Of a DNA stretch of 64,000 bases, positions 7,244-42,099 are shown piece by piece. The DNA lies in assembly GCF_003019815.1 (NCBI RefSeq), contig NZ_CP027773.1, forward strand, positions 5,019,324 through 5,083,323, given 5' to 3'. Made by a program: the position numbers and the translations under genes. The stretch is from Variovorax sp. PMC12 (lineage in GTDB: Bacteria > Pseudomonadota > Gammaproteobacteria > Burkholderiales > Burkholderiaceae_C). The notes under the pieces were generated by a model. The model saw only the letters and a list, made by a program, of their open reading frames with translations. It did not search any database and was not told the DNA's origin. Numbering within the stretch: the stretch's first letter is position 1; the number at the start of each line of letters is the position of its first letter.

Positions 7244-7382
7244 TGCGGACAAGACCTCGTAGGGGGTGGGTGATGCGGCAGGGATTGTAAGTGGGGCAGG
7301 TAACCCCCCGATACAGGCCTGACAGTCTTTCGATGCCTTTCAGGTTTGCCCGCAACGGGCGTCGCCGCGGTACAGTGCCGCC

Positions 7383-8345
7383 GTGGACCGCCTCCAAAGC
7401 ATTGAAACTTTCGTTCGTGTCGCGCAGACCCAGAGCTTCGCGGAAGCGGCTCGGCAGCTGCGGGTGGCCAACTCGGTGGTGACCACGCGGGTCAAGCAGC
7501 TCGAGGAATTCCTGGGTGCGCCGCTGTTCCACCGCAGCACGCGCGTGGTGCGGCTCAGCGACATGGGCCAGGCCTTTCTGCGCGACTGCACCGAGCTGGT
7601 CGTGCGTGCCGACAACATCGTCGACCAGATGCGCGACGCGCGCGGCACGCCTTCGGGCACGCTGCGGGTGCATGCGCTGACCGGCATGGTGCTGGGCCGC
7701 TTCGCCTCGCTGCTGCGCGAGTTCCAGACCACCTACCCCGACATCCACCTCGAGCTGATCGTGAGCGACGCGGTGGCCGACCCGGTCAAGGCCGGCGTCG
7801 ACTGCGCGCTGCAGATCTTTCCGGCGGCCTCGCAGGAACTGGTGTCGCGCCCGCTCTTCCCGGTGCGGCGCGTGCTCTGCGCCACGCCCTCCTACCTGGA
7901 GGCCCACGGCACGCCCGCCACCCCGCGTGAACTGCACCGCCACAAGCTGGGCCTGTATTCGGGCTATCCCACGCGCGACCGCTGGACCTTCCATCACAAC
8001 GGCGAGCAGACCACCATCTACCTCGCCGCCGCGCTGCTGACCAACAGCGTGCACCTGCTGCGCGAATATGCACTGGAGCATGCCGGCATCGTCTGCCTGC
8101 CGACGCTGGTGGCGGGAGACGCCATCGCCCGCGGCGACCTGCAGGTGGTGCTGGCCGAGCACCAGCTGTCGTCGTTCTCGCTGAGCGCGGTGTACGCGGG
8201 CACCTCGCGCAATGCGCTGAAGCTGCGGCTCTTCATAGAGCACATCGCCACGCGCTTCACCCGCGTGCCGCCGTGGGACGCCACGCTGATCGAGCGCGGC
8301 CTCATTCCCGCCGAACTGATCGAGTTCAGCCGCTCCAGCGGATAG
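7383..8345 (+). CDS. LysR-family transcriptional regulator
   Basis: N-terminal HTH (MDRLQSIETFVRVAQTQSFAEAARQLRVANSVVTTRVKQLEE) and a LysR substrate-binding domain. GTG start. Confidence 0.85.
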   Translation: MDRLQSIETFVRVAQTQSFAEAARQLRVANSVVTTRVKQLEEFLGAPLFHRSTRVVRLSDMGQAFLRDCTELVVRADNIVDQMRDARGTPSGTLRVHALTGMVLGRFASLLREFQTTYPDIHLELIVSDAVADPVKAGVDCALQIFPAASQELVSRPLFPVRRVLCATPSYLEAHGTPATPRELHRHKLGLYSGYPTRDRWTFHHNGEQTTIYLAAALLTNSVHLLREYALEHAGIVCLPTLVAGDAIARGDLQVVLAEHQLSSFSLSAVYAGTSRNALKLRLFIEHIATRFTRVPPWDATLIERGLIPAELIEFSRSSG

Positions 8346-10125: not shown

Positions 10126-11604
10126 ATGCCTGCACCGTCCATCCGCCATCAGCTCTTCATCGACGGCCGCTTCGTCGACGCCGAATCCGGCGAGACGCTC
10201 GCCACGCTCAACCCGCACGACAACACGCCCATCGTCGATGTCGCGCTGGCCGGCAAGGCCGACGTCGACAAGGCAGTGGCCGCCGCGAAGCGCGCCTTTC
10301 CCAAATGGAGCCGCATGGCCGCGGCAGACCGGGGCCGCATCCTGCTGAAGCTCGCCGACCTCATCGAGGCCAACGCCGAGGAGCTCGCGCGCCTCGAATC
10401 GCTGGATACCGGCCACCCCATCCGCGATTCGCGCCGGCTCGACGTGCCGCGCACGGCCGCGTGCTTCCGCTACTTCGGAGGCATGGCCGACAAGTTCCAG
10501 GGCGAGACCATTCCGGTGGAAGAGGGCTTTCTCAACTACACGCTGCGCGAGCCCGTCGGCATCGTCGGCCAGGTCGTGCCGTGGAACTTTCCGCTGATGT
10601 TCACCAGCTGGAAAATGGCGCCCGCGCTCGCGGCCGGCAACTGCATCGTGATGAAGCCGGCGGAGATCACACCGCTGAGTTCGCTGCGCATCGCCGAGCT
10701 GATGGCCGAGGCCGGCCTGCCGCCCGGGGTGGTCAACATGCTGCCGGGGCTGGGCAGCGTGGCGGGCCAGTACATCGCCGAGCATCCCGAGATCGCGAAG
10801 ATCGCCTTCACCGGCAGCACCGCCACCGGCCGGCGCATCGTGCAGGCCAGCGCGGGCAACCTGAAGAAGGTGCAGCTCGAACTTGGCGGCAAGGGGCCGA
10901 ACATCGTCTTCGAGGACGCGAACCTGCAGGCCGCAGTCAACGGGAGCGCGTGGGCCATCTTCCACAACCAGGGGCAGGCCTGCATCGCTGGCTCGCGGCT
11001 GATGCTGCACGAGAAGATCGCCGATGCCTTCCTCGAGCAGTTCATACCGCTGGCCAGATCGATCCGCCTCGGCAACCCGCTCGACGAGAACACCGAGATG
11101 GGGCCGCTCACCAGCGCACAGCACCGCGAGCGCGTGCTGAGCTATGTGGAAGTGGCGCAGGGCGAGGGCGGCGAGCTGCTTGCCGGCGGCAAGTCGCCCG
11201 GCGGCGACCTGGCGAAGGGCTGCTACGTCGAGCCGACGGTGATGCGCGCCATGTCATACAAGGACCGCGTCGCGCAGGAAGAAGTGTTCGGGCCCTTCGT
11301 CACCGTGCTCACTTTCAAGAATGACGAAGAGGCGATGCAGATCGCCAACGGCACCGACTACGGCCTCGGCAGCGGCCTGTGGACCGGCAACCTGCAACGC
11401 GCCCACAAAGTGGCGCGCGACCTGCACGCCGGCATGGTCTGGATCAACAGCTACAAGCGCGTGAACCCCGGCTCGCCCTTCGGCGGCGTCGGCCAGAGCG
11501 GCTACGGCCGCGAGATGGGGTTCGATGCGATGCGCGAATACACGCAGGTCAAGAGCGTGTGGGTGAACGTCGACGCGCAGATACCGCCGCACTTCGCGCG
11601 CTGA
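10126..11604 (+). CDS. NAD(P)-dependent aldehyde dehydrogenase (candidate 4-hydroxymuconic semialdehyde dehydrogenase, HapE-like)
   Basis: 492-aa ALDH-family protein. Position immediately after the dioxygenase pair. RBS GGAGAGGA. Confidence 0.8.
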   Translation: MPAPSIRHQLFIDGRFVDAESGETLATLNPHDNTPIVDVALAGKADVDKAVAAAKRAFPKWSRMAAADRGRILLKLADLIEANAEELARLESLDTGHPIRDSRRLDVPRTAACFRYFGGMADKFQGETIPVEEGFLNYTLREPVGIVGQVVPWNFPLMFTSWKMAPALAAGNCIVMKPAEITPLSSLRIAELMAEAGLPPGVVNMLPGLGSVAGQYIAEHPEIAKIAFTGSTATGRRIVQASAGNLKKVQLELGGKGPNIVFEDANLQAAVNGSAWAIFHNQGQACIAGSRLMLHEKIADAFLEQFIPLARSIRLGNPLDENTEMGPLTSAQHRERVLSYVEVAQGEGGELLAGGKSPGGDLAKGCYVEPTVMRAMSYKDRVAQEEVFGPFVTVLTFKNDEEAMQIANGTDYGLGSGLWTGNLQRAHKVARDLHAGMVWINSYKRVNPGSPFGGVGQSGYGREMGFDAMREYTQVKSVWVNVDAQIPPHFAR

Positions 11605-26889: not shown

Positions 26890-28167
26890 TCATTGCGAGT
26901 CGGCGGGGATCAAACGCTTCCACCACGGCTGCTTCGCCGGTGCGGTGGCCGGGGATGCAACAAAAGCCTTGCGGGCCCTGGCGCGAGTGCGCAGCTTTTC
27001 GATGAGGTCTGCGCTTGCCCACACCGACGGCTCGCCTTCGAGCTGTTCGAGCGCCCACCGTATCTCGGACTCTGCCGCTTCGCACATGGCTTCGCCTTTG
27101 ACCGCACCTTGCGTTACGGCCAACTGCTGTTGCGGGTCGCCGTTGCCGAACCAGAAAGTACATGCGGCGATGTACGAGAAAACTGCGGCCTTCATGGGCG
27201 CGTCGTCTGGGCCGGCTTTCCTTGTGGACGCCAAGTGCCGCCCCAGGTCATGCTGTACGCCGAGCAGGCTGTCCACCATTTCGTCGCAGGTCAGCGGCAG
27301 ATTGAAATCCTGTTGCAGCAGTTGCGCCCACAGCACCTTGTCCAAACGGTCCTGCAACGGGAATTTCTTGTCGAAGCCGATGGCCGAGGCGTAGGCCTCG
27401 ACATTGGGATAGAGGGCCTGAGCGCAGAAGGTCGCGAATGCCGCAGCCTTCGGGTTCGAGAGCTTCGACAGCCGGGGCGAAAAGGCCTGGGAGAGGCGAC
27501 TCTGCGCTTGTGACTCGACGACCTGCCGGATGTTCTGCTCCACCCAGTGCAGGTACCAGTCATTGAAACCCATGCGGGTTCCATCTTCTTTCAGGAAGGG
27601 TTTGATGCCCTCGTTGTCCGCTCGCAGGTCGCGCCAGACCGTACCTGCCAGAGGCCCTGTCACGACCAGCCAGTTGCGCAGGGCGCAGCCTTCATGGCAG
27701 ATGGGTATGGCGCCGTCGGTGATGCTGGTGGCGTAGTAGTCGCTTTCAAGCTTCCTTTCCCAAGCTTCGTGCATCCGGTCTTGTTCTTCGACGGGCATGT
27801 CTTCCGGCGGATCGGGCTGCTGGCGCCAGAAGTCCTCAGGAAGGTTCCATGCGTCGCGCAGCGGGAACGGCCTGGACAGGTCTCCGATGAGTGCGTAGCC
27901 CTCGTCCCAACGGCAAAGGTCGTGGCTCCTGTCGTGCATGCCGAGCGGAAACACGCCATATGCCGGGCCCGCACCACCGTTTCCGATCTCCGTGATGAAC
28001 CTGCGGTACTCATCGGGGAATCTGCACCCGTGCTTGGCTTCCACCTGTGCGACCTCTTCTTCGGAAAGTGGCGGATTCAGGTCGTACCAGTGCGACTTCG
28101 CCGCAAAGCAACTGCAGTCCAGATCGAGCCGCTTGAGTGTCTGAAGACGGGACAGGATGTCGGTCAC
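26890..28167 (-). CDS. SMI1/KNR4 (SUKH-1) domain protein with a roughly 230-aa C-terminal extension
   Basis: N-terminal SUKH signature (..HWYDLNPPLSEEEVAQVEAKHGCRFPDEYRRFITEIGNGGAGPAYGVFPL..). 425 aa. GTG start with RBS AAAGGA. Confidence 0.65.
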   Translation of the reverse strand: MTDILSRLQTLKRLDLDCSCFAAKSHWYDLNPPLSEEEVAQVEAKHGCRFPDEYRRFITEIGNGGAGPAYGVFPLGMHDRSHDLCRWDEGYALIGDLSRPFPLRDAWNLPEDFWRQQPDPPEDMPVEEQDRMHEAWERKLESDYYATSITDGAIPICHEGCALRNWLVVTGPLAGTVWRDLRADNEGIKPFLKEDGTRMGFNDWYLHWVEQNIRQVVESQAQSRLSQAFSPRLSKLSNPKAAAFATFCAQALYPNVEAYASAIGFDKKFPLQDRLDKVLWAQLLQQDFNLPLTCDEMVDSLLGVQHDLGRHLASTRKAGPDDAPMKAAVFSYIAACTFWFGNGDPQQQLAVTQGAVKGEAMCEAAESEIRWALEQLEGEPSVWASADLIEKLRTRARARKAFVASPATAPAKQPWWKRLIPADSQ

Positions 28168-28190
28168 GACGGGTTAAGTCCTTTTGCTTG

Positions 28191-28547
28191 TTACGCGATG
28201 CCGAGGATCGACGACACCGAGCGGTGGAGCTCTTCGACGAGTTCCGGGTCCATGTATTTGTACTCGTCCGGAATGTCGAGCACATGGATCGGCTTGCCTC
28301 CCAGCATTCGCGTGAACTCCGCCACAAGCCGCGACTTGTGCTTTTCTTCCATCACCAGGATCACGTCGGCCCATTCGATGTCGTCCACAGACACCGTGTG
28401 CCGCGCATTCGGGCTGGTGCCGGCCGAGCGTGCGCAGATAAGGGGATGCCGGCGCCAGATCTGCTCCGCGGTCGGGCTGCGCCATTGATTTCGGCTGCAG
28501 ATGAAGAGAACGTTGCGAACGGGTGAGGTCGATGGTTTTTCGGGCAT
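28191..28547 (-). CDS. Low-molecular-weight phosphotyrosine-phosphatase/ArsC-fold phosphatase
   Basis: P-loop CX5R(S): VLFICSRNQWRS near the N-terminus, and an Asp-Pro general-acid region (DIPDEY). ATG at 28547 chosen because the longer form overlaps ligT. Confidence 0.6.
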   Translation of the reverse strand: MPEKPSTSPVRNVLFICSRNQWRSPTAEQIWRRHPLICARSAGTSPNARHTVSVDDIEWADVILVMEEKHKSRLVAEFTRMLGGKPIHVLDIPDEYKYMDPELVEELHRSVSSILGIA

Positions 28548-28557
28548 GAATGAATAC

Positions 28558-29028
28558 TCAGGAGGTCGCCTCGGGCAACGCAAAGACATGCAAGTCCCGC
28601 CAACGCCCTGACGAGTTCTCCATCAGCGCGACCTCGGTGCAATGCGCATGCACAGCGCCAGATGCAAGAAGCCGGGTGCCCAGTTCGACGGCAGCATCTT
28701 CCGCATCGCGCACGTTGCCGTGTGCCACTGAAAGATGCGGAACGACGCCTTCGTGTTCGCCGCCATATGGCGGGAAATCGGGAAAGGCCTTCGCGAGCGC
28801 CAGCGTCATCTCGATGAAAGGGGCGGCGGGCTCGGGCGCCAGATACGCGGTCTCGGGAAACCGCCCGACCTTGCCCAGCGAGAACTCGAACGACGGCGTC
28901 TGCGCGAGCACGTGCCGCGCACTGTCCAGCACGTCTGCCGTGATCAGCGCGGGGTCCATGAAGGGAACAAGAAGCGTGATGTGTGCCGGCACGCCGAGCG
29001 CCACGGTCGTAGCGGCGGCGCAGATCAC
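28558..29028 (-). CDS. 2H phosphoesterase, LigT/ThpR-like 2',3'-cyclic phosphodiesterase (RNA 2'-5' ligase family)
   Basis: Two H-x-T/S-x motifs (HITLL and HLSVA) with the correct spacing. 156 aa. Immediately downstream of rtcR. Confidence 0.75.
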   Translation of the reverse strand: MICAAATTVALGVPAHITLLVPFMDPALITADVLDSARHVLAQTPSFEFSLGKVGRFPETAYLAPEPAAPFIEMTLALAKAFPDFPPYGGEHEGVVPHLSVAHGNVRDAEDAAVELGTRLLASGAVHAHCTEVALMENSSGRWRDLHVFALPEATS

Positions 29029-29115: not shown

Positions 29116-30735
<1,620 letters not shown>

Positions 30736-30870: not shown

Positions 30871-30886
30871 TGGCACGCCGGCTGCA
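30871..30886 (+). promoter_or_regulatory. Sigma-54 (-24/-12) promoter TGGCAC-gccgg-CTGCA driving the rtc operon
   Basis: Matches the TGGCAC-N5-TTGCW consensus, with GG and GC at the proper spacing. Located 135 nt upstream of the divergent rtcR and about 540 nt upstream of the first rtc-operon CDS. Confidence 0.7.
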
Positions 30887-30896
30887 ATGGATATCC

Positions 30897-31424
30897 CGTC
30901 AGGATGCAGTCCATCCACTCGCAGGTGCCGCGTAGAAGCGGCCCGGTGCAGCAAGCCAGGCAAGTCCTTGGGTTTGCCGTATGCCGTGGCTGGGCTGCCT
31001 GGCAACTGAACTTGATTCAGTCCCGCTCATGGTTGAGCGCCGTGCTAACCACATGGAGCCGCGGGTTCGATTCCCGCAAAAAACCCGGCGGTGCCTGCAC
31101 CGCCACCTGATGGGGGCGAAAGCCCCTCCGCCCCGGCACACCGGAGCGATGGCGCAGGGCAAACATGCCCTGCGCCGCGCGCCAAAGTGCCAAGCGCAGG
31201 CGGCTTGCGCACCGCGTGCGTGGCAAGGAACTGCGTGTGGCCATCGAAGGCGAGGCAGGTGACGGCGTTGCAAAAGCGACGAGGGAGGCACCTGCCGAGC
31301 CGGGCGACCGCCGCACGTCAGGCCTTGGCTGCCGCAGTGCCCGCCGCCTGCCCTTTCGAGGGCCTAGACCGAATGACTGAAGACTGAACGAAGAAACGAA
31401 CCGAATAACGAGTGGGAGAAAAAG
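30897..31424 (+). ncRNA. Long structured 5' leader or candidate ncRNA of the rtc operon, containing a tRNA T-arm mimic (GCGGGTTCGATTCCCGC, 31061-31077) and several strong hairpins
   Basis: Perfect T-stem-loop consensus (GGGTTCGATTCCC). GNRA hairpin GGGGC-GAAA-GCCCC (31113-31126). 7-bp hairpin (31087-31104). 10-bp hairpin GGCGCAGGGC-aaacat-GCCCTGCGCC (31151-31176). Anticodon-like stem-loop CTGAA-cttga-TTCAG (31006-31020). No credible protein-coding potential. Boundaries are approximate. Confidence 0.45.
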
Positions 31425-32576
31425 ATGTTGGGCTTCAACCGAATCACGATCAAGAAGAACGAACGCGCGCTGCTGCTTCGCAACGGCGATTTCGAGCAAC
31501 TGCTGGGCGCCGGAAAGCACCGGGTGTTTTCGGGTTTCGACAAGATCCAGCTGCAGCGCTTTGCCCTGACCGAGCCGGCTTTCGAGCACGAGCTGGTCGA
31601 CTACTTCCTGGCACAGGAGCCTGAGCTGGTCGAGCGCGAGTTCGTGCATGTGTCGCTCGGCGAAACCCAGGCCGGCCTGCGCCTGGAGGACGGCGTGCTG
31701 GTGCAGATCCTGCCGCCCGCCACCCGCAAGCTGTACTGGCGCGGCCTGCGCGAACAGCGCATCGACGTGATCGACGTGGCTGAAGACGTGCGCCTGCCGG
31801 CCGAACTGGTGTCGAAGCTGCAGAGCGTGGCGCTGCGCCCGCGTGCGGTGGCCGGCCTCGACGGCGTGCTGCTGGTGCAGGTTCCGGAGTTCCACGTCGG
31901 CGTGCTGACGCTGCAGGGCCAGATGCAGGAGCTTCTGGCGCCGGGCAACCACGGTTTCTGGCGCTTCAACCGGCAGGTGGCAGTGACCTGCGTGGACATG
32001 CGCTCGCAGATCGCCGAAGTGAGCGGCCAGGAAATCCTGACCCGCGACAAGGTGGGCCTGCGGCTGAACATGTCGGCGGTGTGGCGCTTCACCGATGTGC
32101 GGCAGGCGATGGCGCAGATGCCGAAGCCGGCCGACCATGTGTATCGCGAGCTGCAGTTCGGGCTTCGCGCCGCGGTGGGCGAGCAGACGCTCGATGCGCT
32201 GCTGGAGAACAAGGCGGCCATCGACCAGACGGTGCTGGCGCAAGTGCGCGAGCGGCTGGAAGGCTCCGGCATTGCGCTGGAAAGCGTGGGCGTGAAGGAC
32301 ATCATCCTGCCCGGCGAGATGAAGACCATCCTCGCCCAGGTGGTGGAGGCCGAGAAGTCGGCCCAGGCCAACGTGATCCGCCGCCGCGAGGAAACCGCGG
32401 CCACGCGCTCGCTGCTGAACACCGCCAAGGTGATGGAGGGCAACCCCGTCGCGCTGCGGATGAAGGAACTCGAAACGCTGGAACGGGTGGCCGAGCGGAT
32501 CGACAAGATCTCCGTGATCGGCGGTCTGGACCAAGTGCTCAATGGGTTGGTGACGCTTCGGCCGAACGCTCCTTGA
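31425..32576 (+). CDS. SPFH/band-7 (stomatin/prohibitin-like) domain protein with an extra N-terminal domain
   Basis: C-terminal SPFH region (..ILTRDKVGLRLNMSAVWRFTDV..VKDIILPGEMKTILAQVVEAEKSAQANVIRRREE..). RBS GGGAGAAAAAG. First gene of the rtc operon. Confidence 0.8.
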   Translation: MLGFNRITIKKNERALLLRNGDFEQLLGAGKHRVFSGFDKIQLQRFALTEPAFEHELVDYFLAQEPELVEREFVHVSLGETQAGLRLEDGVLVQILPPATRKLYWRGLREQRIDVIDVAEDVRLPAELVSKLQSVALRPRAVAGLDGVLLVQVPEFHVGVLTLQGQMQELLAPGNHGFWRFNRQVAVTCVDMRSQIAEVSGQEILTRDKVGLRLNMSAVWRFTDVRQAMAQMPKPADHVYRELQFGLRAAVGEQTLDALLENKAAIDQTVLAQVRERLEGSGIALESVGVKDIILPGEMKTILAQVVEAEKSAQANVIRRREETAATRSLLNTAKVMEGNPVALRMKELETLERVAERIDKISVIGGLDQVLNGLVTLRPNAP

Positions 32577-32631
32577 ACTCCGGACTCGAGAAGGATTGAC
32601 TGGCGCCGAAGAGGCGCCAAGGGAGAAGAAA

Positions 32632-33126
32632 ATGACCGAAGAAGAAATTCGCGCACACGACCTCATCGCCTATGACCTGCACGACGCGGGCTGGGCCGAC
32701 GTGAGCTTCCGCGCCGCTTCCGAGCGACTGGGCTTCGCGGTGTCCTACCTGCACGATTCGCTCGGCGACCTTGCGCGCATGGGCCTGACCCTGCAAAAGG
32801 GTGCCGAGCACGCCGAGGCCGTGTTCATGGACGAGCCGGGCGAGGTGATCCTGCTGGTCTCGGGTGCTTGGGACGTGTTGCAGTACGAGCTGCGCCAGTA
32901 CCGTGACTGGGCCAGCTGGGGAATGGTCGGTGTGCATGACCATGAAGTGGTGGCGCGCGGAGAGATTTCGCGTACCGAGCTGGTCCGGAACATCCATGCG
33001 ATCCTGCAGCGCATCCACGATGAAGTGGGGCCGAAGCGCTACCGCGAGATGTGGGTGGAGCACGACTTCCCGCTGCAGGACTACGAACGACTGTCGATCG
33101 CGCTGTACAAGCGCGCGATGACCTGA
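32632..33126 (+). CDS. Hypothetical protein (164 aa) between the SPFH gene and rtcB
   Basis: ATG at 32632 with RBS GGGAGAAG. Acidic protein with no recognisable motif. Confidence 0.55.
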   Translation: MTEEEIRAHDLIAYDLHDAGWADVSFRAASERLGFAVSYLHDSLGDLARMGLTLQKGAEHAEAVFMDEPGEVILLVSGAWDVLQYELRQYRDWASWGMVGVHDHEVVARGEISRTELVRNIHAILQRIHDEVGPKRYREMWVEHDFPLQDYERLSIALYKRAMT

Positions 33127-33160
33127 ACAGAGGAGTGAAACGATGATGAAAGAAGAAAAA

Positions 33161-34378
33161 ATGAACTACAACCTGCACGAAGTCGAGAACGGCGTGCCCG
33201 TGAAGATGTGGACCCGCGGCGTGCCCGTGGAGCCCGAGGCGCAGAAGCAGCTGGAGAACGCAGCGCGCCTGCCCATCGTGTTCAAGCACATTGCGGCCAT
33301 GCCCGACGTGCACTACGGCATCGGCGCCACCGTGGGTTCGGTGATCCCGACCTTCAAGGCCATCATTCCCACCGCGGTGGGCGTGGACATCGGCTGCGGA
33401 ATGATGGCGTGCAAGACCACGCTGCATGCCAACGACCTGCCCGACAACCTGGGGCCGCTGCGCTCGGCGATCGAGAAGGCCGTGCCGCACGGCTCGAACC
33501 CCAAGCGCATGGGCCGCGACAAGGGCTCGTGGGAGACGCCGCCGAACGAAACCGACGTGGCATGGGGTGCGCTGAAGGACGAGTTCGACGCGATCTGCGA
33601 AGACTACCCGCGCCTGAAGAACACCAACAACCACAAGCACCTGGGAACGCTGGGTACGGGCAACCACTTCATCGAGGTGTGCCTGGACGAGGCGGGCTCC
33701 GTGTGGTTCATGCTGCATTCGGGTTCGCGCGGCGTGGGTAACGCCATCGGCACGCACTTCATCGAGCTCGCCAAGAAAGACGCCGAGCTGCACCAGCGCA
33801 ACCTGCCCGATCAGGACCTGGCGTACTTCGAGGAAGGCGCCCAGTACTTCGGCGACTATGTGCGCGCCGTGGGCTGGGCCCAGAAGTTCGCGCGCGCGAA
33901 CCGCGAAGTGATGATGCAGCGCGTGGTAGCGGCCGTTCGCAAGGTCATCACCAAGCCTTTCGAGGCGCATGTGGAAGCGGTGAACTGCCACCACAACTAC
34001 GTGAGCCGCGAAACGCACTTCGGTGAAGACGTGCTCGTCACCCGCAAGGGCGCGGTGAGCGCGAAGGCCGGCGAGTTGGGGATCATCCCCGGCAGCATGG
34101 GCGCCAAGAGCTTCATCGTGCGCGGAAAAGGCAACCCCGAGAGCTTCATGAGCTGCAGCCACGGTGCCGGTCGAAAGATGAGCCGTACCAAGGCGAAGAA
34201 GCTCTACACCGTGGCCGACCAAGTCGCCGCGACCGAAGGCGTGGAATGCCGAAAAGACGCCGACGTGATCGACGAGATCCCGATGGCCTACAAGGACATC
34301 GACGCGGTGATGGAGGCGCAGCAGGACCTGGTGGAGGTGGTCTACACGCTCAAGCAGGTTGTTTGCGTGAAGGGGTGA
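33161..34378 (+). CDS. rtcB: RNA-splicing ligase RtcB (3'-phosphate/5'-hydroxyl RNA ligase)
   Basis: Near-collinear with E. coli RtcB from MNY.. to the C-terminal ..YTLKQVVCVKG. Metal ligands and nucleophilic His region conserved (HGSNP.., GTGNHFIE, CHHNY, SCSHGAGR). ATG at 33161 (MNYNLHE) chosen to match the canonical N-terminus. Confidence 0.92.
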   Translation: MNYNLHEVENGVPVKMWTRGVPVEPEAQKQLENAARLPIVFKHIAAMPDVHYGIGATVGSVIPTFKAIIPTAVGVDIGCGMMACKTTLHANDLPDNLGPLRSAIEKAVPHGSNPKRMGRDKGSWETPPNETDVAWGALKDEFDAICEDYPRLKNTNNHKHLGTLGTGNHFIEVCLDEAGSVWFMLHSGSRGVGNAIGTHFIELAKKDAELHQRNLPDQDLAYFEEGAQYFGDYVRAVGWAQKFARANREVMMQRVVAAVRKVITKPFEAHVEAVNCHHNYVSRETHFGEDVLVTRKGAVSAKAGELGIIPGSMGAKSFIVRGKGNPESFMSCSHGAGRKMSRTKAKKLYTVADQVAATEGVECRKDADVIDEIPMAYKDIDAVMEAQQDLVEVVYTLKQVVCVKG

Positions 34379-34475: not shown

Positions 34476-35117
34476 ATGAAGAGCAACAAGCAACGCCGCG
34501 CCGAGATCAAGGCGCACCGCCGCGAGCGTGCTGCCGCTCTGGCAGCACGCTCGCGCCTGCCGGATGTCCGGCTGCCGAAAGCCGACTTCGCCGATGCACT
34601 CGGTTGCGAGCCGGCGGATCGAGCTGTTCTGCAGCAACACAACAACACCTACGGCGTGCTGCCTGACTTCTATGTCGCGCGTTCATTCATCTGCCGCGAT
34701 TGCGGTGCCGACGAGGTATGGACGGCCAAGCAGCAGAAATGGTGGTACGAGACGATTCAGGGTCACATCGACAGCCGTGCCGTGCGATGCCTCGCATGCA
34801 GGCGCGCACGGCGCGAACGTTTGCGAGCCGTTGCGCCTGGCGCCGACCTTCTGCTCGAGAAGACGTGTCGACTGCGTGCGTTGGGTGCGGCAAAGCCGAG
34901 CGTTCAAGCCAGGGCCGAAATCGAGGCGGCATTGCAAAGCAAATGGTGGAGCCTGCGTGTCGTGGCGATCCAGGCAATGGGGCGCTGGGGCGGTGAAGAG
35001 AACCTCGCACGGCTACACGCGTTCATGGCGTCTCGTCCGGAGGGAGGTCGCCGATACTTCGGTTGGGAGCGCGTCGCCGCGGACGCTGCAAGAAGCGCAT
35101 TGATGCGCAGGGAGTGA
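34476..35117 (+). CDS. Hypothetical Zn-ribbon-containing protein (213 aa)
   Basis: C-x2-C ... C-x2-C (CRDCGADEVW ... CLACRRARR), Arg/Lys-rich N-terminus. Sits in the operon between rtcB and the RNase Z-like gene. Confidence 0.5.
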   Translation: MKSNKQRRAEIKAHRRERAAALAARSRLPDVRLPKADFADALGCEPADRAVLQQHNNTYGVLPDFYVARSFICRDCGADEVWTAKQQKWWYETIQGHIDSRAVRCLACRRARRERLRAVAPGADLLLEKTCRLRALGAAKPSVQARAEIEAALQSKWWSLRVVAIQAMGRWGGEENLARLHAFMASRPEGGRRYFGWERVAADAARSALMRRE

Positions 35118-35125
35118 TCAACGAG

Positions 35126-36082
35126 ATGATGAAACTGACTTTTCTGGGTACCTCCTCCGGTACCCCCACGCGCCACCGCAACGTCTCCGGCCTCGCCGTG
35201 CAGACGGTGCTCGGCCCGGACTGGTTCCTGCTCGACTGCGGCGAGGGCACGCAGCATCGCGTGCTGCAAACGCCGCTGTCCCTGAACGACCTGGCCGCCG
35301 TCTGCATCACGCATGTGCACGGCGACCACTGCTACGGCCTGCCGGGCCTGCTCGCGAGTGCGGGCATGAACAAGCGCACGAAGCCGCTGAAGCTGATTGC
35401 GCCGCTGCCGGTGTGGGAGTGGTTCGAGGCGACGCGCGCGTTGACCGATCTGCATCTGCCCTACGAAGTCGAGCATGTGGATATCGGCGGACCGCTGTTG
35501 GTGTATGAGGTGCCGGGCCTGCGCATCGAAAGCCATGCGCTGATGCATCGTGTGCCCAGCCACGCTTACCGCATGCAAGTCGAGACGCGGCGCGTGCGGC
35601 TGAAAGCGGACGCATTGCGCGCCATCGGCCTGCCACCCGGCCCCGCATGGCGTGCGCTGCAGCAGGGCGAGGACATGCCTTTCAACGGCGGCATGCTGCG
35701 CAGCGCCGACTACACCGAGACCCAGGTCGAAACGGTTGCCGCCGTTGTGGGCGGTGACAACGCCAAACCCGCGTTGCTGCACGACGCCTGCAGGGGCGCG
35801 CAACTGCTGGTGCACGAGGCCACCTTCACGCAGGAGGCACTCGACAAGGTCGGCCCCGGGCCGATGCACAGCTCCGCGCGCCTGCTGGCCGAGTTCGCGC
35901 AGGCGGCCGAAGTGCCCAACCTGATCCTCACGCACTTCAGCGCGCGCCACCAGAACGAAGAGGGCATGGCTGCTTTGATGGCAGAGGCGCAGGCGCACTA
36001 CCGCGGCCATGCGTTCCTGGCCAGCGACCTGGATGTCTACGAGCTCGACAGTGCCGGCAACGTGACCGTCACCCGGGCTTGA
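35126..36082 (+). CDS. Metallo-beta-lactamase-fold ribonuclease, RNase Z/RNase BN-like
   Basis: HxHxDH motif (ITHVHGDHCYGLPGLL) and RNase Z-like length (318 aa). N-terminus MMKLTFLGTSSGTPT matches the RNase Z start. Confidence 0.7.
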   Translation: MMKLTFLGTSSGTPTRHRNVSGLAVQTVLGPDWFLLDCGEGTQHRVLQTPLSLNDLAAVCITHVHGDHCYGLPGLLASAGMNKRTKPLKLIAPLPVWEWFEATRALTDLHLPYEVEHVDIGGPLLVYEVPGLRIESHALMHRVPSHAYRMQVETRRVRLKADALRAIGLPPGPAWRALQQGEDMPFNGGMLRSADYTETQVETVAAVVGGDNAKPALLHDACRGAQLLVHEATFTQEALDKVGPGPMHSSARLLAEFAQAAEVPNLILTHFSARHQNEEGMAALMAEAQAHYRGHAFLASDLDVYELDSAGNVTVTRA

Positions 36083-36108
36083 CGAGAAAAGAAGACAAGA
36101 AGAAAGAC

Positions 36109-36960
36109 ATGAGTACCGAAGAATTCCTGCGCTCTGCCCACCCGATCGAGCCCGCCGTGCGCACGCAGATCATGGAGGCCCTGAGCGACATCGAAGCAAC
36201 GCATGACGTGACCGTGCTGTTCGCCTGCGAATCCGGCAGCCGCGGCTGGGGCTTCGCCTCGCCCGACAGCGACTACGACGTGCGCTTCATCTACGTCAAC
36301 CGCCTGCCGTGGTACCTCACGGTGGCACCGCGTCGCGACGTGATCGAGGTGCCGATCAGCGGCGACCTCGACATCAACGGCTGGGACCTGCGCAAGGCGC
36401 TGGGCCTGATGCGCGAGTCGAACCCGACGCTGCTCGAGTGGCTGCGCTCGCCCATCGTCTACCGCGACGACGCGGTGGCGATGCCGCGCTTTCGCGCGCT
36501 GTCGGAGGCCGTGTTCTCCAACGCGCGCGGCTGGCATCACTACAGCTCGATGGCGAAGAAGAATTTCCGCGAGCATCTGCAGGCCGACGAGGTGCGCTAC
36601 AAGAAATACCTCTACGTGCTGCGACCTCTGCTGGCCGCGCGCTGGATCCGCTCGCGCGCCGGCGTGCCGCCCATGCGCTTCGCCGACCTGGCGCAGCACA
36701 CGCTCGACCCGGTGCGCGACGCGGCGCTGATCGCCGAGATCAACGCGCTGCTCGAGGTGAAGATGCGCGCCGGCGAAGCCGCGACCAGCCCGCGCTGGCC
36801 GGGTATCCACGCGTTCATCGAAGCCGAGCTGGCGGCCAATGCAGCCGAGCCGGTGACGCCGCTGCCGTCGGCCGATGGTTCGGGGCTCGATGCGTTCCTG
36901 TACGACACGGTGCTGCGTCTCGAGGCGGTGAACAAGAAGAAGGAGGCCGTCCATGATTGA
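36109..36960 (+). CDS. Pol-beta-superfamily nucleotidyltransferase (RtcB-associated NTase)
   Basis: GS...D-x-D nucleotidyltransferase motif (LFACESGSRGWGFASPDSDYDVRFIYV). ATG at 36109 preceded by a purine-rich RBS. The track start at 36079 is a TTG. Confidence 0.65.
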   Translation: MSTEEFLRSAHPIEPAVRTQIMEALSDIEATHDVTVLFACESGSRGWGFASPDSDYDVRFIYVNRLPWYLTVAPRRDVIEVPISGDLDINGWDLRKALGLMRESNPTLLEWLRSPIVYRDDAVAMPRFRALSEAVFSNARGWHHYSSMAKKNFREHLQADEVRYKKYLYVLRPLLAARWIRSRAGVPPMRFADLAQHTLDPVRDAALIAEINALLEVKMRAGEAATSPRWPGIHAFIEAELAANAAEPVTPLPSADGSGLDAFLYDTVLRLEAVNKKKEAVHD

Positions 36961-37990
36961 ACTCGACGGCTCCCAAGGCGAGGGCGGCGGCCAGATCCTG
37001 CGCACCAGCCTCGCGCTGTCGGTGGCCACCGGCCAGCCGCTGGCCATCGAGAAGATCCGCGCGGGCCGTGCCAAGCCGGGCCTGATGCGCCAGCATCTGG
37101 CGTGCGTGAACGCTGCCGCCGCGATCAGCGGTGCGCAAGTCGAAGGCGCCGAGCTCGGATCGCAGTCGCTGCGCTTCACGCCCTGCTCGGTGCGCGCGGG
37201 CGAGTACCGCTTCGCGATCTCGGGTGCGGGCAGCTGCATGCTGGTGCTGCAGACCGTGCTTCCGCCGCTGCTGCTGGCTGGCGCACAGAGCCGCGTGCAC
37301 CTGAGCGGCGGCACGCACAACCCGATGGCGCCGCCGTTCCATTTCCTGGAGCGCGCTTTCGCGCCGCTGGTGCGCCGCCTGGGGGCGGACCTGCAACTGA
37401 CGCTTCGCCGCTGCGGCTTCTACCCGGCCGGCGGCGGCGAGGTGGAGGCGGTTATCGTGCCGGCGGCCGGCCCGCTGCAGCCCTTCGACCTGACCGCGCG
37501 CGGCGCGCACCGGGCCGGTCACGCGGAGTGCCTGGCACCGGGCCTGCCGCGCCATGTGCCGACGCGCGAACTCGACACGCTGGGCGGCGCGATGGGCTGG
37601 TCCGGCGAGCAGCTGCGCCTGGGCGCGGTGCGCCAGAACGAAGGGCCGGGCAATGCGCTGATGGCCACGCTGGCCTACGAACACGTCACCGAGGTGTTCA
37701 CCGCCTTCGGCGAAAAGTCGATGAGCGCGGAGCAGGTGGCGCATGGCCTGGCCAGGGAGCTGCGCGCGTTCCAGAAGAGCGAGGCGGCGGTCGGACCGCA
37801 CCTCGCTGATCAGCTGGCGCTGCTGCAGGCGCTTGCCGCGTGGCAGGGCAGGAAGGCCTGCGCCTTCACCTGCAGCGAGGTGACGGAGCACACGCGCACC
37901 AACTGCGCGGTGATCGAGCGCTTCCTGCCCGTGCGCTTCGCCATCGCCGAGGGCGGCGATGCCTGCAGGGTGCAGGTCGCTCCGGCCTGA
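36953..37990 (+). CDS. rtcA: RNA 3'-terminal phosphate cyclase RtcA
   Basis: MIELDGSQGEGGGQILRTSLALS.. is the RtcA signature N-terminus. 345 aa. Overlaps the NTase stop. Confidence 0.9.
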   Translation: MIELDGSQGEGGGQILRTSLALSVATGQPLAIEKIRAGRAKPGLMRQHLACVNAAAAISGAQVEGAELGSQSLRFTPCSVRAGEYRFAISGAGSCMLVLQTVLPPLLLAGAQSRVHLSGGTHNPMAPPFHFLERAFAPLVRRLGADLQLTLRRCGFYPAGGGEVEAVIVPAAGPLQPFDLTARGAHRAGHAECLAPGLPRHVPTRELDTLGGAMGWSGEQLRLGAVRQNEGPGNALMATLAYEHVTEVFTAFGEKSMSAEQVAHGLARELRAFQKSEAAVGPHLADQLALLQALAAWQGRKACAFTCSEVTEHTRTNCAVIERFLPVRFAIAEGGDACRVQVAPA

Positions 37991-39642: not shown

Positions 39643-41304
39643 CTACGCGCATACGGCACCAGTGGATGCGTAGAGCACCGCAAGAGGTTCGGAGCGCCCG
39701 CGCACCGCGAGCGTTTCAGGCGTGCCCAGGGTGTGCGCCACGCCCGCCTGCTCGGCCGCGAACAGCGAGACGACGAGGCGCGACGCCGCCGTCTTCGAAT
39801 GGTCCTGCAGCCGGCTCGCGGTGTTCACCACTTCGCCGATGGCGGTGAAGGTGGTGGTTTCCAGGTAGCCCACCTCGCCCACCGCGGCGCGGCCCGCATG
39901 CAGGCCCATGCCGAACTCCAGCCGCTGGCCGAACTGCGCCTCGAAGCCCTGGCTCCATGCGTCCATGCGCTCGCCGATCAGCTCGGTCGCGCGCAGCGCC
40001 TGCCTGCAGGCGGTCGGCAGGTCGCAGTCGAGCCCGAAGATGGCCATCACGCTGTCGCCGATGAACTGGTTGGGCACGCCGCCGCTCTCGCGCACGGCCG
40101 CGCCCACGGTGGCGAAGTAGCGATCGAGCACATAGGCCAGGTCGAAGGGCCACTGCCGCTCCGACAGGCCTGACCAGCGCCGCAGGTCGACGAACAGGAT
40201 CGCCACGTCTCGCTCGCGCCCGAAGCTGCCGACCGGCGCGGGCCGGCCTTCGTTGGGCAGCGGCGCGAACAGCGGCGTCACCTCGATGTCGCCGCGCGGG
40301 CGCAGCTGACAGGCCAGCCGCACGTCGGCGGGCGCGCGCACGCGCTCCAGCGTGCGTTGCTCGTCGCGGCCCGCTTCTCCGACGTGCTCCGCCGGGCCGG
40401 CCACGCGCACCCGGCAGGTCGAGCAGCGCGCCCGGCCGCCGCAGATCGACAGGTGGTCGATGCCGTGCGAACGGCTCGCCTCCAGCACGCTCCAGCCGCG
40501 CGGCACCTGCACCGTGCGGTCGGGATAGCGCAGCGTGATCGACGGCTGTCGCGACCAGCGCGCGAAAGCGTTGCGCCCCCAGCGCGCCAGAAGCAGCAGG
40601 GCCAGCGCCAGTCCGTAGAACCACTTGATGCTGTCTTCGGCCGTACCGAGCGCCTTGCCCTGCTCGGGCGTCGGCAGCACGACGGGCGGCACGCCGGTCC
40701 ACTGGAACTCCCGGCCCATCGACACGAAGCCCATCGCCGCCGTCAGCGGCAGCGTCACGGCCACGGCCAGCAGCAGGTAGGAAAAGCGCCGGTACGCCGG
40801 CTGCGCCCGCAGCGCGAAGTGCAGGCCGAGGCAGCCGTGGGTCCAGGCCGCCAGCATCATCACCAATTGCGCGGCCGCGCCCTGCCAGTCCCACAGGCCC
40901 CAGACCACCCGCACGTACGAGCCCTCGATGCCGTAGGCCATGTAGGCGCCGCGCATGGCCGTGAGGTGGGTGGCCAGCAGCAGCGGCAGCGCAAAGCCCA
41001 GCAGCACCCGCAGGCCCTCCAGCGGCGGCATGCGCAGGGTGCGCCGCTCCCACAGCGCGACCACGGCCAGCACGAGGTGGGTGCCCGCGGCGCCATACAG
41101 CAGCGCGGTGCCGGGCAGGCTGTGCCAGAACTTCTGCACGCCGCGCAGCACGGTTTCGGCGGCGGCAAACGAATAGATGCCGAGCGAATGGTTCAGCAGG
41201 TGAACCGTGATGTAGGCCATCAGCACCAGCCCGCTCGCCCAGCGGAGATTGCGCCGTGTCGGCGTTCTCGGGGAAAAGTGCGGTTGGGGGGAACGTCTGT
41301 CCAT
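39643..41304 (-). CDS. Membrane-bound class III adenylate/guanylate cyclase with an N-terminal 6-TM His-containing domain and a plant-type 2Fe-2S ferredoxin domain
   Basis: TM helices carrying conserved His (HLLNH, THLTA, WTHGCLGLH). 2Fe-2S Cys pattern ICGGRARCSTCRV...C. C-terminal cyclase domain (FVDLRRWSG...GDSVMAIFG...GLHAGRAAVGEVG). Confidence 0.75.
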   Translation of the reverse strand: MDRRSPQPHFSPRTPTRRNLRWASGLVLMAYITVHLLNHSLGIYSFAAAETVLRGVQKFWHSLPGTALLYGAAGTHLVLAVVALWERRTLRMPPLEGLRVLLGFALPLLLATHLTAMRGAYMAYGIEGSYVRVVWGLWDWQGAAAQLVMMLAAWTHGCLGLHFALRAQPAYRRFSYLLLAVAVTLPLTAAMGFVSMGREFQWTGVPPVVLPTPEQGKALGTAEDSIKWFYGLALALLLLARWGRNAFARWSRQPSITLRYPDRTVQVPRGWSVLEASRSHGIDHLSICGGRARCSTCRVRVAGPAEHVGEAGRDEQRTLERVRAPADVRLACQLRPRGDIEVTPLFAPLPNEGRPAPVGSFGRERDVAILFVDLRRWSGLSERQWPFDLAYVLDRYFATVGAAVRESGGVPNQFIGDSVMAIFGLDCDLPTACRQALRATELIGERMDAWSQGFEAQFGQRLEFGMGLHAGRAAVGEVGYLETTTFTAIGEVVNTASRLQDHSKTAASRLVVSLFAAEQAGVAHTLGTPETLAVRGRSEPLAVLYASTGAVCA

Positions 41305-41370
41305 GAACGGGTTCGAAGCGGCTCCCGAGCATAATCCGCGCGCTCATCCCCCTTGACCACAGACCCCGGC

Positions 41371-42099
41371 ATGGACAAACCAGACCCTGTCCCGCGTTCC
41401 AGCCTCGCACTGCGCCAGATCGCGCTGCTCGAAGGCCTCTCCGACCAGCGGCTGGACCTGCTGGCCCGGCAATGCCTGTGGCACAGCGTGGAAGCCGGCA
41501 AGCCCCTGCTGCTGCGCGCCGAGCAGCAGGGCGAGGTGTTCCTGCTGGTCTCGGGCCGGGTGCGGGTGACGACCTATTCGGCCAACGGCCGGCAGGTGAC
41601 CTTCCGCGACTCGGAGGCCGGGGAGCATTTCGGCGACATCGCCGCCATCGACGGCGGCCCGCGCTCGGCCGACGTCGTCACCCTTGCGCCCAGCGTGGTC
41701 GCCAGCCTGGACCGTGCCGCCTTCATGGCCCTTTTGCGCGACGAGCCGCTGGTGGCTGAGCGGGTGATGCTGCGGCTGGCTTCGCTGGTGCGGCAGCTGT
41801 CGGAACGGGTGATCGACCTGAGCACCCTGGGCGTGCAGAACCGGCTGCACGCCGAGCTGCTGCGCCTGGCCCGTGCCGCCGGCCCGCATGGCGGGGACGC
41901 CAACCAGGCCCGGCTGGACCCCGCGCCCAAGCATGCGGCGCTGGCCAGCCAGATCAGCACCAACCGCGAGCAGGTCACCCGCGAACTCAACGTGCTGGTG
42001 CGCAGCGGCGTGCTGCGCAAGGACGACAAGGCCCTGCTGGTGGCCGACATCGCCCGCCTCGAGGCGATGGTCTCGCAGGTGCGGGGCGACGCCGGCTGA
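41371..42099 (+). CDS. Crp/Fnr-family transcriptional regulator (cNMP-binding domain plus HTH)
   Basis: cNMP-binding domain (..GEHFGDIAAIDGGPRSADVVTLAP..) and C-terminal HTH (SQISTNREQVTRELNVL). The track start at 41353 is a TTG, and the ATG at 41371 was used. Confidence 0.75.
   Translation: MDKPDPVPRSSLALRQIALLEGLSDQRLDLLARQCLWHSVEAGKPLLLRAEQQGEVFLLVSGRVRVTTYSANGRQVTFRDSEAGEHFGDIAAIDGGPRSADVVTLAPSVVASLDRAAFMALLRDEPLVAERVMLRLASLVRQLSERVIDLSTLGVQNRLHAELLRLARAAGPHGGDANQARLDPAPKHAALASQISTNREQVTRELNVLVRSGVLRKDDKALLVADIARLEAMVSQVRGDAG

Follow-up and report, generated by a model that had tools for sequence, protein, structure and literature searches.

An RNase Z gene within an RtcR-type rtcBA operon of Variovorax sp. 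PMC12 and its possible role in tRNA 3'-end trimming

The stretch of 64,000 nucleotides (nt) of Variovorax sp. PMC12 analyzed here (contig NZ_CP027773.1, positions 5,019,324 to 5,083,323; hereafter the window) carries an RNA repair operon in which a metallo-beta-lactamase (MBL)-fold gene and a Pol-beta nucleotidyltransferase (NTase) gene lie between rtcB and rtcA. The original prediction saw in this pair an RNase Z-like nuclease and a CCA-adding-like NTase that would act, with a tRNA-like leader, as one module for tRNA 3'-end repair. Both open reading frames (ORFs) are present on the + strand at the positions given in Table 1, and both are real genes rather than chance ORFs, with a Pfam match to RlaP at E=2e-90 for the NTase, an RNase Z hidden Markov model (HMM) match at E=8e-71 for the MBL protein, and thousands of homologues. 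They belong to a co-directional array of seven genes encoding a Band-7 protein, a 176-amino-acid (aa) protein, RtcB, a zinc-ribbon protein, RNase Z, RlaP, and RtcA, with rtcR divergent and separated from the Band-7 gene by an intergenic region of 689 nt. RNase Z and the NTase thus sit between rtcB and rtcA as predicted, but the insert comprises three genes, the one for the 213-aa zinc-ribbon protein having been missed. As detailed below, the RNase Z belongs to a clade, formed by Comamonadaceae and Acinetobacter members, that is almost always linked to rtc genes.

Table 1. Features of the rtc locus and its flank in the window
Feature	Position	Strand	Evidence
118-aa LMW-phosphatase-like protein (low molecular weight), CX5RS motif (CSRNQWRS), downstream of the 2H gene	28191..28547	-	Pfam LMWPc 26.4 bits (cutoff 23.2)
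2H (2',5'-RNA-ligase-type) phosphoesterase, directly downstream of rtcR, same strand	28558..29028	-	Pfam 2_5_RNA_ligase2 E=2e-22
rtcR, sigma54-dependent activator with CARF-like RtcR domain	29116..30735	-	NCBIfam RNA_repair_RtcR 823 bits (cutoff 650); Pfam RtcR + Sigma54_activat
Sigma54 (-24/-12) promoter TGGCACGCCGGCTGC, likely operon transcript start	30871..30885	+	Pattern match, 1 mismatch
tRNA-like element in the ~530-nt leader	31005..31077	+	Closed hairpin, D-arm, anticodon-like arm, T-arm
SPFH/Band-7 protein, first gene of the operon	31425..32576	+	Pfam Band_7 E=2e-28
176-aa protein, function unassigned (164 aa in the NCBI call)	32596..33126	+	Kept upstream of rtcB in L002
rtcB, RNA 3'-phosphate/2',3'-cyclic phosphate ligase	33143..34378	+	Pfam RtcB E=2.5e-128
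213-aa treble-clef zinc-ribbon protein, weak HEAT-like C-terminus	34476..35117	+	Pfam zf_Tbcl E=1.6e-14; HEAT_2 E=0.028
Predicted short-form RNase Z (ElaC/RNase BN type), 318 aa	35126..36082	+	TIGR02651 E=8e-71; motifs; fold
Predicted RlaP (RNA-ligase-associated Pol-beta nucleotidyltransferase), 283 aa from ATG	36109..36960	+	PF10127 E=2.2e-90
rtcA, RNA 3'-terminal phosphate cyclase	36953..37990	+	NCBIfam PRK04204 408 bits (cutoff 352); Pfam RTC + RTC_insert

The MBL gene is predicted to encode a catalytically intact short-form RNase Z, i.e., an endonuclease cutting 3' of the discriminator, because HMM, PDB sequence, and fold comparisons all match tRNA-processing RNase Z and because the flexible arm is present. 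TIGR02651 covers the protein end to end (profile positions 1-301 of 302), and the best PDB sequence matches were E. coli RNase BN/ZiPD (2cbn; 5e-48, residues 2-305) and B. subtilis RNase Z (1y44; 2e-45), both aligned without large gaps through the flexible arm and with 31-34% identity over the full length. The HxHxDH motif reads H63-V-H65-G-D67-H68, aligns with H63/H65/D67/H68 of the B. subtilis enzyme, and is invariant in 19 clade members, as are the other metal-binding or catalytic motifs H141, D211, H270, H230-E231-A-T (HEAT), and H248-S-S (HST). The N-terminus (MMKLTFLGTSSGTPTRHRN) agrees with that of RNase Z and with its PxKxRN loop, which here is P14-T-R16-H-R18-N19, with Arg for Lys like the PTRTRN of E. 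coli. The flexible arm, the exosite for the tRNA T-arm, is aligned ungapped and holds the Gly-Pro motif GLPPGPAW at residues 168-175. Moreover, R274 is invariant across the clade; this is reportedly (Dutta, Malhotra & Deutscher 2013) the residue by which CCA shields tRNA from E. coli RNase BN. In the AlphaFold2 model (mean predicted local distance difference test [pLDDT], 90.6), the predicted fold was best matched in Foldseek by 2cbn (template modeling [TM] score, 0.84) and by the B. subtilis RNase Z-tRNA complex 4gcw (TM 0.83), with 309-312 columns aligned. Motifs, profiles, structures, and fold hence agree with the RNase Z-like reading of HxHxDH and of the N-terminus, and the protein groups with tRNA-processing RNase Z/RNase BN rather than with non-nuclease MBL hydrolases. 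NCBI naming within the clade is mixed, several members being called "ribonuclease Z" and others "MBL fold metallo-hydrolase."

The sequence of the NTase identifies it as a predicted RlaP, not as a CCA-adding enzyme. PF10127, which spans the NTase domain and a C-terminal helical domain, matches over its full profile (positions 2-247 of 249; 303.1 bits versus a gathering score of 23) and is the only Pfam family at E<=0.01; none of the CCA-enzyme families matches, NCBIfam gave zero matches, and a PDB sequence search found no solved structure matching the protein, which has a PHROG nucleotidyltransferase match at 1.8e-85. The catalytic Asp residues are present, the GS, DxD, and D positions (G43-S44, D55-x-D57, and D86/D88, numbered from ATG 36109, the third carboxylate being D86 or D88) being unchanged across six homologues, the most distant at 45% identity. 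RlaP is named for its association with RNA ligases, and the gene indeed shares its operon with rtcB, while its stop overlaps the rtcA start. A position between rtcB and rtcA is already known from Pseudomonas, as the RlaP genes of P. fluorescens and P. aeruginosa sit exactly there according to a December 2025 preprint by Carruthers, Fatma & Huang (PMC12776372). The two Pseudomonas enzymes add 1-2 nucleoside monophosphates (NMPs), from any nucleoside triphosphate (NTP), onto an RNA 3'-OH, refuse 3'-phosphorylated ends, and label rRNA, full-length tRNA, and tRNA fragments; on a nicked tRNA mimic, they favor the 3' end of the anticodon-loop break, the acceptor 3' end being a poorer substrate (PMC12776372). 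Carried over from these enzymes, the activity of the Variovorax protein would be the addition of 1-2 NMPs. With so few nucleotides of any kind added and a preference for the anticodon-loop break, CCA rebuilding by RlaP would therefore be unsupported by this analogy, and the proposed likeness of the NTase to CCA-adding enzymes, whose families it fails to match, was not borne out. The authors of that work propose that RlaP refills nucleotides taken off by "smart" ribotoxins, and they name as unsolved that RlaP needs and leaves a 3'-OH while RtcB needs a 3'-phosphate (PMC12776372).

The junctions are as tight as was claimed. The RNase Z gene starts (ATGATG) 8 nt past the stop of the 213-aa zinc-ribbon gene (35115-35117), and its ribosome-binding site, GGGAG, falls within the 3' end of that gene. 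The NTase begins 26 nt past the RNase Z stop at its first ATG, which is the NCBI call, or overlaps this stop by 4 nt (TTGA) if the longest ORF, of 293 aa from TTG 36079, is used; its stop (36958-36960) and the rtcA start overlap by 8 nt. The GG-N10-GC of the sigma54 element is retained in the metagenome relative L095 (L numbers designate loci of the survey described below). The sigma54 pattern alone is at chance level, with 5 matches in the window versus 7.4 expected, and the support for it is its position and its conservation. We regard the genes from Band-7 to rtcA as one operon, a predicted single transcription unit divergent from rtcR with a sigma54 promoter, RtcB, and RtcA, because of the conserved -24/-12 element, the short or overlapping junctions, and the absence of terminator-like sites on the + strand between 30600 and 38200.

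The leader of this unit (30871-31424 with the promoter) holds the tRNA-like element on which the original prediction had also drawn. Its D-arm (GCUC-AUGGUU-GAGC), anticodon-like loop (CUAACCA), and T-arm (GCGGG-UUCGAUU-CCCGC) are visible by manual folding only (folding z = -2.8), and a closed hairpin replaces the open acceptor stem, so that the element is without canonical acceptor stem or CCA end. The core is near-invariant with respect to L095, while flanks and linkers vary. ARAGORN and Rfam (E<=1) were negative on the leader, and the presence there of a canonical tRNA or of a Y RNA was rejected. Probably the element is equivalent to the Band-7-associated tRNA-like RNA of the Burroughs & Aravind 2016 prediction, to the extent that this prediction is cited in bioRxiv 10.1101/312249. 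In Ro-type Variovorax operons (L002, 4645-5199; L003, L004, and L005), the interval from the Ro gene to rtcB holds two to three GGTTCGANTCC T-loop motifs at a spacing of ~110 nt; one such GGTTCGANTCC motif is YrlA by Rfam, which suggests several tRNA-like RNAs per operon.

To place the RNase Z gene in a wider context, 80 genomic loci among the matches listed, 80 metagenomic loci, and ten targeted contexts were collected and then searched with the window operon proteins. Among the loci collected, rtcB or rtcA is present in 13 of the 15 with an RNase Z sharing 61% identity or more with the window protein, against 2 rtc-linked loci of 145 with an RNase Z less than 60% identical. An RNase Z in an rtc operon is thus unusual family-wide, as had been supposed, and each of the two genes is co-conserved with rtcB/rtcA elsewhere. 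One of the two unlinked loci among the 15 close ones is a 1.4-kb contig, and the clade members Lampropedia L006 and L092 are without rtc genes within 7-8 kb.

The arrangement around the RNase Z gene is otherwise variable. The smallest layout, found in V. robiniae, is rtcR|rtcB-RNase Z-rtcA, without RlaP and with a leader of only ~85 nt in which a tRNA-like element was searched for and none found. Other layouts are Ro-(RNA)-rtcB-RNase Z-183 aa-rtcA (L084), HEAT protein-RNase Z-rtcA without RlaP (L087), 687-aa protein-RNase Z-RlaP-rtcA (L086), and the degraded rtcB-HigBA-RNase Z (L083). Of 16 informative loci, 8 have RlaP beside RNase Z (the window, L002, L003, L004, L086, L088, L089, and L095) and the other 8 are without RlaP (L005, L009, L082, L083, L084, L087, L091, and L094), while Pseudomonas has RlaP, but no RNase Z, between rtcB and rtcA. 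The two genes are therefore not one co-inherited module, contrary to what had been proposed, and because the minimal operon of V. robiniae exists, RNase Z is tied to RtcB/RtcA rather than to RlaP or the leader RNA, neither of which that operon has. The slot upstream of RNase Z varies as well, with the 213-aa zinc-ribbon protein in the window, a 476-aa HEAT protein in L087, and the 687-aa protein in L086; as these are without detectable mutual similarity, a conserved partner protein at this position was ruled out.

Two of these loci deserve further description. L084 (1-16957) has two RtcB systems head to head around one rtcR, namely RlaP-RtcB-PrfH and Ro-(RNA)-RtcB-RNase Z-183 aa-RtcA, with HipA and Fic toxin genes a few kilobases off. 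In L083, a HigB-type toxin-antitoxin pair (7376-7952) lies between rtcB and RNase Z; rtcR and rtcA are not nearby, and a Vsr/DNA methylase unit flanks the locus.

By neighbor joining, the Comamonadaceae-type RNase Z proteins form a clade (bootstrap, 77%) to which that of the 37%-GC Acinetobacter contig L094 is sister (bootstrap, 71%). Genus-wide in Acinetobacter (L094, L168 from A. pittii, and L170), the RNase Z gene (rnz) lies between rtcR and rtcB, an adjacency noted without interpretation in 2011 for island G51 of A. baumannii (PMC3224125). In L168 (8933-10230), rnz separates the regulator gene rtcR from its promoter and has an apparent TATAAT-type promoter of its own. The Kangiellaceae locus L009 reads rtcB-rtcA-tRNA-Lys-like gene-Band-7-660 nt-RNase Z, beside a second RtcB-PrfH pair, and its RNase Z joined the Comamonadaceae/Acinetobacter clade in 0 of 100 bootstraps; this rtc linkage is an independent one. 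In L009 (5771-5900 and 10266-12449), the tRNA-Lys(UUU)-like gene upstream of Band-7 has an encoded CCA, and a second T-arm-like motif follows ~65 nt on; the second RtcB-PrfH pair (PrfH with an RF-1 domain) is convergent. The stop of the L009 RNase Z gene is overlapped by the gene of a 259-aa protein without family match, for which identity as a divergent RlaP was ruled out, there being no similarity to RlaP and no Pfam match.

On the other side of rtcR, the 2H phosphoesterase gene also adjoins rtcR in L002, L003, and L095, and the LMW-phosphatase-like gene is kept near rtcR in L002 and L003 and apparently also in L095. These two products are candidate RNA end-healing enzymes that could turn cyclic-phosphate ends into hydroxyl ends for RlaP. 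They are followed on the minus strand (26890-29028 for the whole group) by a 425-aa SUKH/SMI1_KNR4 protein, of an immunity-protein family. For the 176-aa protein upstream of rtcB (32596-33126), Pfam, NCBIfam, PHROG, and PADLOC scans gave no family. Just past the operon lies a membrane protein with both a 2Fe-2S ferredoxin domain and an adenylate/guanylate cyclase domain (39643-41304, minus strand), beside a Crp-type cNMP-binding regulator (41353-42099), both apparently unrelated to the operon. Membership of the locus in anti-phage defense was ruled out, with zero PADLOC matches for seven locus proteins.

Altogether, we tentatively favor, at somewhat below an even chance, a model of damage-induced tRNA 3'-end trimming, in which the RNase Z would cut aberrant ends back to a discriminator 3'-OH on which the housekeeping CCA enzyme can act. 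What we infer in this model are co-induction, the substrates, and the way in which RNase Z, RlaP, and the CCA enzyme share the work. tRNA damage would release tRNA 5' fragments with a 2',3'-cyclic phosphate that RtcR would sense, as shown for Salmonella RtcR, resulting in induction of the whole operon. RtcB would then reseal breaks, RtcA would regenerate cyclic ends, and RlaP would refill the one or two nucleotides lost at 3'-OH break ends. In a separate job from that of RlaP, RNase Z would dock via its flexible arm onto the acceptor/T-arm of tRNA and cut just 3' of the discriminator wherever the tail is anything but an intact CCA. Such a tail may have been shortened, may end in a blocking phosphate or cyclic phosphate, or may carry a wrong extension made by promiscuous RlaP or through RtcB mis-ligation. 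The clean 3'-OH left by the cut would be rebuilt by the housekeeping CCA-adding enzyme, not by RlaP. E. coli RNase Z/BN trims aberrant tRNA 3' ends including CA, CU, and CCU (PMC7479834), and RNase Z/BN opposes the CCA-adding enzyme in vivo, over-produced RNase BN burdening cells without CCA-adding enzyme (PMC11784652). The observation behind the original prediction is thus confirmed and its tRNA 3'-end repair interpretation partly supported, except for CCA rebuilding by the NTase. A wider claim, that the rtc-linked RNase Z represents a previously unrecognized "trim-and-rebuild" branch of tRNA repair beside RtcB sealing, in which RNase Z would free a 3'-OH, the 2H and LMW phosphatase proteins might do likewise at breaks, and RlaP and/or the CCA enzyme would resynthesize, seems to us rather improbable. 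A bolder version of this claim would have RNase Z and RtcB together turn the closed-acceptor leader into an open tRNA-shaped cofactor, by analogy with the maturation of circularly permuted tRNA genes.

Several points weigh against the favored trimming model. The RNase Z equivalog cutoffs are missed (238.6 versus 292.95 bits for TIGR02651 and 225.5 versus 252 for NF000801), and no clade-specific insertion, active-site change, or specificity-altering substitution is obvious in the RNase Z alignment. The products of RNase Z, a 3'-OH and a 5'-phosphate, are no substrates of RtcB, so the tight rtcB/rtcA tie is chemically unexplained. In A. pittii, the sigma54 promoter TTGGCACACTCAGTGCA (L168, ~10126-10142) lies downstream of rnz, which would not be co-induced there, and the link of rnz to rtc genes in Acinetobacter, as read from the sequence, appears positional, not transcriptional. 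A. baumannii strains without rtc genes retain rnz (PMC3224125). With rnz outside the sigma54 unit in Acinetobacter and kept in the absence of rtc genes, this RNase Z therefore has an rtc-independent role as well.

Among other explanations, RNase Z might mature the tRNA-like RNAs of its own operon, by excising the leader RNA or YrlA-type Y RNAs or by opening the closed acceptor-like stem, to provide a cofactor for the Band-7 or Ro scaffold. Counting only the RNase Z-bearing rtc loci, most hold a tRNA-like RNA module: Band-7 plus a T-arm element in the window and L095, YrlA in L002, L004, and L091, Ro with a T-loop motif in L084, Ro in the Acinetobacter locus L094, and the tRNA-Lys-like gene upstream of Band-7 in L009. 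In M. smegmatis, moreover, tRNA enzymes process YrlA, and it has been suggested that RNase P/Z may open a closed acceptor stem (bioRxiv 10.1101/312249). Yet the V. robiniae operon dispenses with any such element, A. pittii is without a Ro or Band-7 gene, the window element is without the acceptor stem and 3' trailer that RNase Z requires, and the L009 gene has its CCA already encoded, all of which leave this explanation a minor, if appreciable, possibility. Alternatively, the protein may be an ordinary general-purpose RNase Z/BN that came to lie near rtc genes by shared horizontal transfer or hitch-hiking and has no dedicated repair role. This would fit the absence of any sequence feature setting the clade apart from housekeeping RNase Z, the own promoter region of Acinetobacter rnz and its survival of rtc loss, and the unlinked Lampropedia loci L006 and L092. 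We nevertheless consider it unlikely: the Variovorax gene is intra-operon, 8 nt after the preceding gene and with its ribosome-binding site inside it; the rtcB/rtcA adjacency survives many rearrangements, down to ~61% identity; a damage-only sigma54 promoter would be odd for a housekeeping tRNA-processing gene; and a second, independent linkage exists in Kangiellaceae.

A role of RNase Z at the break itself has been weighed too, in which it would remove the nucleotide(s) bearing a cyclic or 3'-phosphate and so generate a 3'-OH for RlaP, or would degrade unrepairable fragments and end the RtcR signal. RNase Z chemistry does give a 3'-OH, whereas RlaP cannot use 3'-phosphorylated ends. E. coli RNase BN is reportedly also an exonuclease and makes endonucleolytic cuts in 3'-phosphorylated RNAs (Dutta & Deutscher 2009). 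Where RlaP finds its 3'-OH ends in RtcB operons is a question that the discoverers of its activity leave open (PMC12776372), and termination of RtcR signaling is likewise open (PMC7790460). However, half of the loci have RNase Z without RlaP, the locus already holds candidate end-healers in the 2H phosphoesterase and the LMW-phosphatase-like protein, conservation of the flexible arm speaks for recognition of a whole tRNA, and the 3'-OH produced would remain unsealable by RtcB; we thus judge action at the break quite unlikely. The two-gene module of the original prediction, in which RNase Z would remove tRNA 3' termini that are damaged and the neighboring NTase would rebuild CCA, profits from the same 3'-OH, which RlaP requires, from the labeling of full-length tRNAs by RlaP in total RNA (PMC12776372), and from the adjacency of the genes in 8 of 16 loci. 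It has become very doubtful, given an RlaP with little NTP specificity that stops after 1-2 nt and disfavors the acceptor 3' end in the nicked-tRNA mimic (PMC12776372), an NTase outside all CCA-enzyme families, and RNase Z and RlaP genes that each occur without the other. Finally, the MBL protein could be imagined to be no RNase but a cyclic-nucleotide phosphodiesterase like Apyc1 of phages, since precomputed Pfam annotation places PF23023 (Anti-Pycsar_Apyc1) on all clade members and the protein has a partial N-terminal match to cyc_nuc_deg_phdiest. But PF23023 is also found on bona fide Acinetobacter RNase Z, our own Pfam scan of the window protein did not return it at E<=0.01, and PADLOC had zero matches; we reject this identity as extremely improbable on the fold (7u2r, TM 0.60, versus 0.83-0.84 for RNase Z) and on the motifs, the flexible arm, PxKxRN loop, and HEAT/HST motifs being present.

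rtc operons are widespread, and their repair targets and the order of steps are still unclear. The RNase Z clade near rtcB/rtcA offers a candidate third activity for them, endonucleolytic trimming to a 3'-OH, and its linkage points to the tRNA 3' end as a repair target and to an as yet unstudied trimming step. RNase Z, RlaP, RtcB, RtcA, and the 2H/phosphatase pair form a testable protein set for the reconstitution of multi-step tRNA repair. In the searchable literature, we found RNase Z nowhere described as a functional part of an rtc system, although Burroughs & Aravind 2016 might mention it. What is new is RNase Z as a recurrent rtc partner, barely described so far beyond the adjacency noted in Acinetobacter in 2011.

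The system itself belongs to a kind already known, in which RtcR regulates an rtcBA operon that also has RlaP and a Band-7/tRNA-like module, and is a variant of it that includes RNase Z. Its RNase Z shares length class, motifs, arm, and predicted fold with E. coli RNase BN/ZiPD (ElaC, 2cbn) and B. subtilis RNase Z (1y44, 4gcw), but theirs are stand-alone housekeeping genes, while the Variovorax gene lies inside an RtcR/sigma54 repair operon and belongs to a clade traveling with rtcB/rtcA. With the Pseudomonas rtcR|rtcB-rlaP-rtcA operon (PMC12776372), it has in common the regulator, the ligase, the cyclase, and RlaP directly upstream of rtcA; where Pseudomonas has only RlaP between rtcB and rtcA, Variovorax adds the zinc-ribbon protein and RNase Z, and upstream it adds Band-7, the 176-aa protein, and the tRNA-like leader. 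In the Acinetobacter arrangement rtcR-rnz-(rsr)-rtcB-...-rtcA, the sister-clade RNase Z is likewise near rtcR, rtcB, and rtcA, yet rnz has rtcR on one side and the sigma54 promoter of rtcB on the other, and RlaP is absent, whereas the Variovorax RNase Z lies between rtcB and rtcA within the predicted transcription unit. The Band-7/b7a-tRNA and Ro/YrlA RtcB systems, such as Salmonella rsr-yrlBA-rtcBA (PMC7790460), share with the window, as described in the literature available, a scaffold protein (here Band-7) and a tRNA-like noncoding RNA under RtcR; the Variovorax element differs in being without canonical acceptor stem and uncalled by ARAGORN or Rfam, and RNase Z is not among the components of those systems named in that literature.

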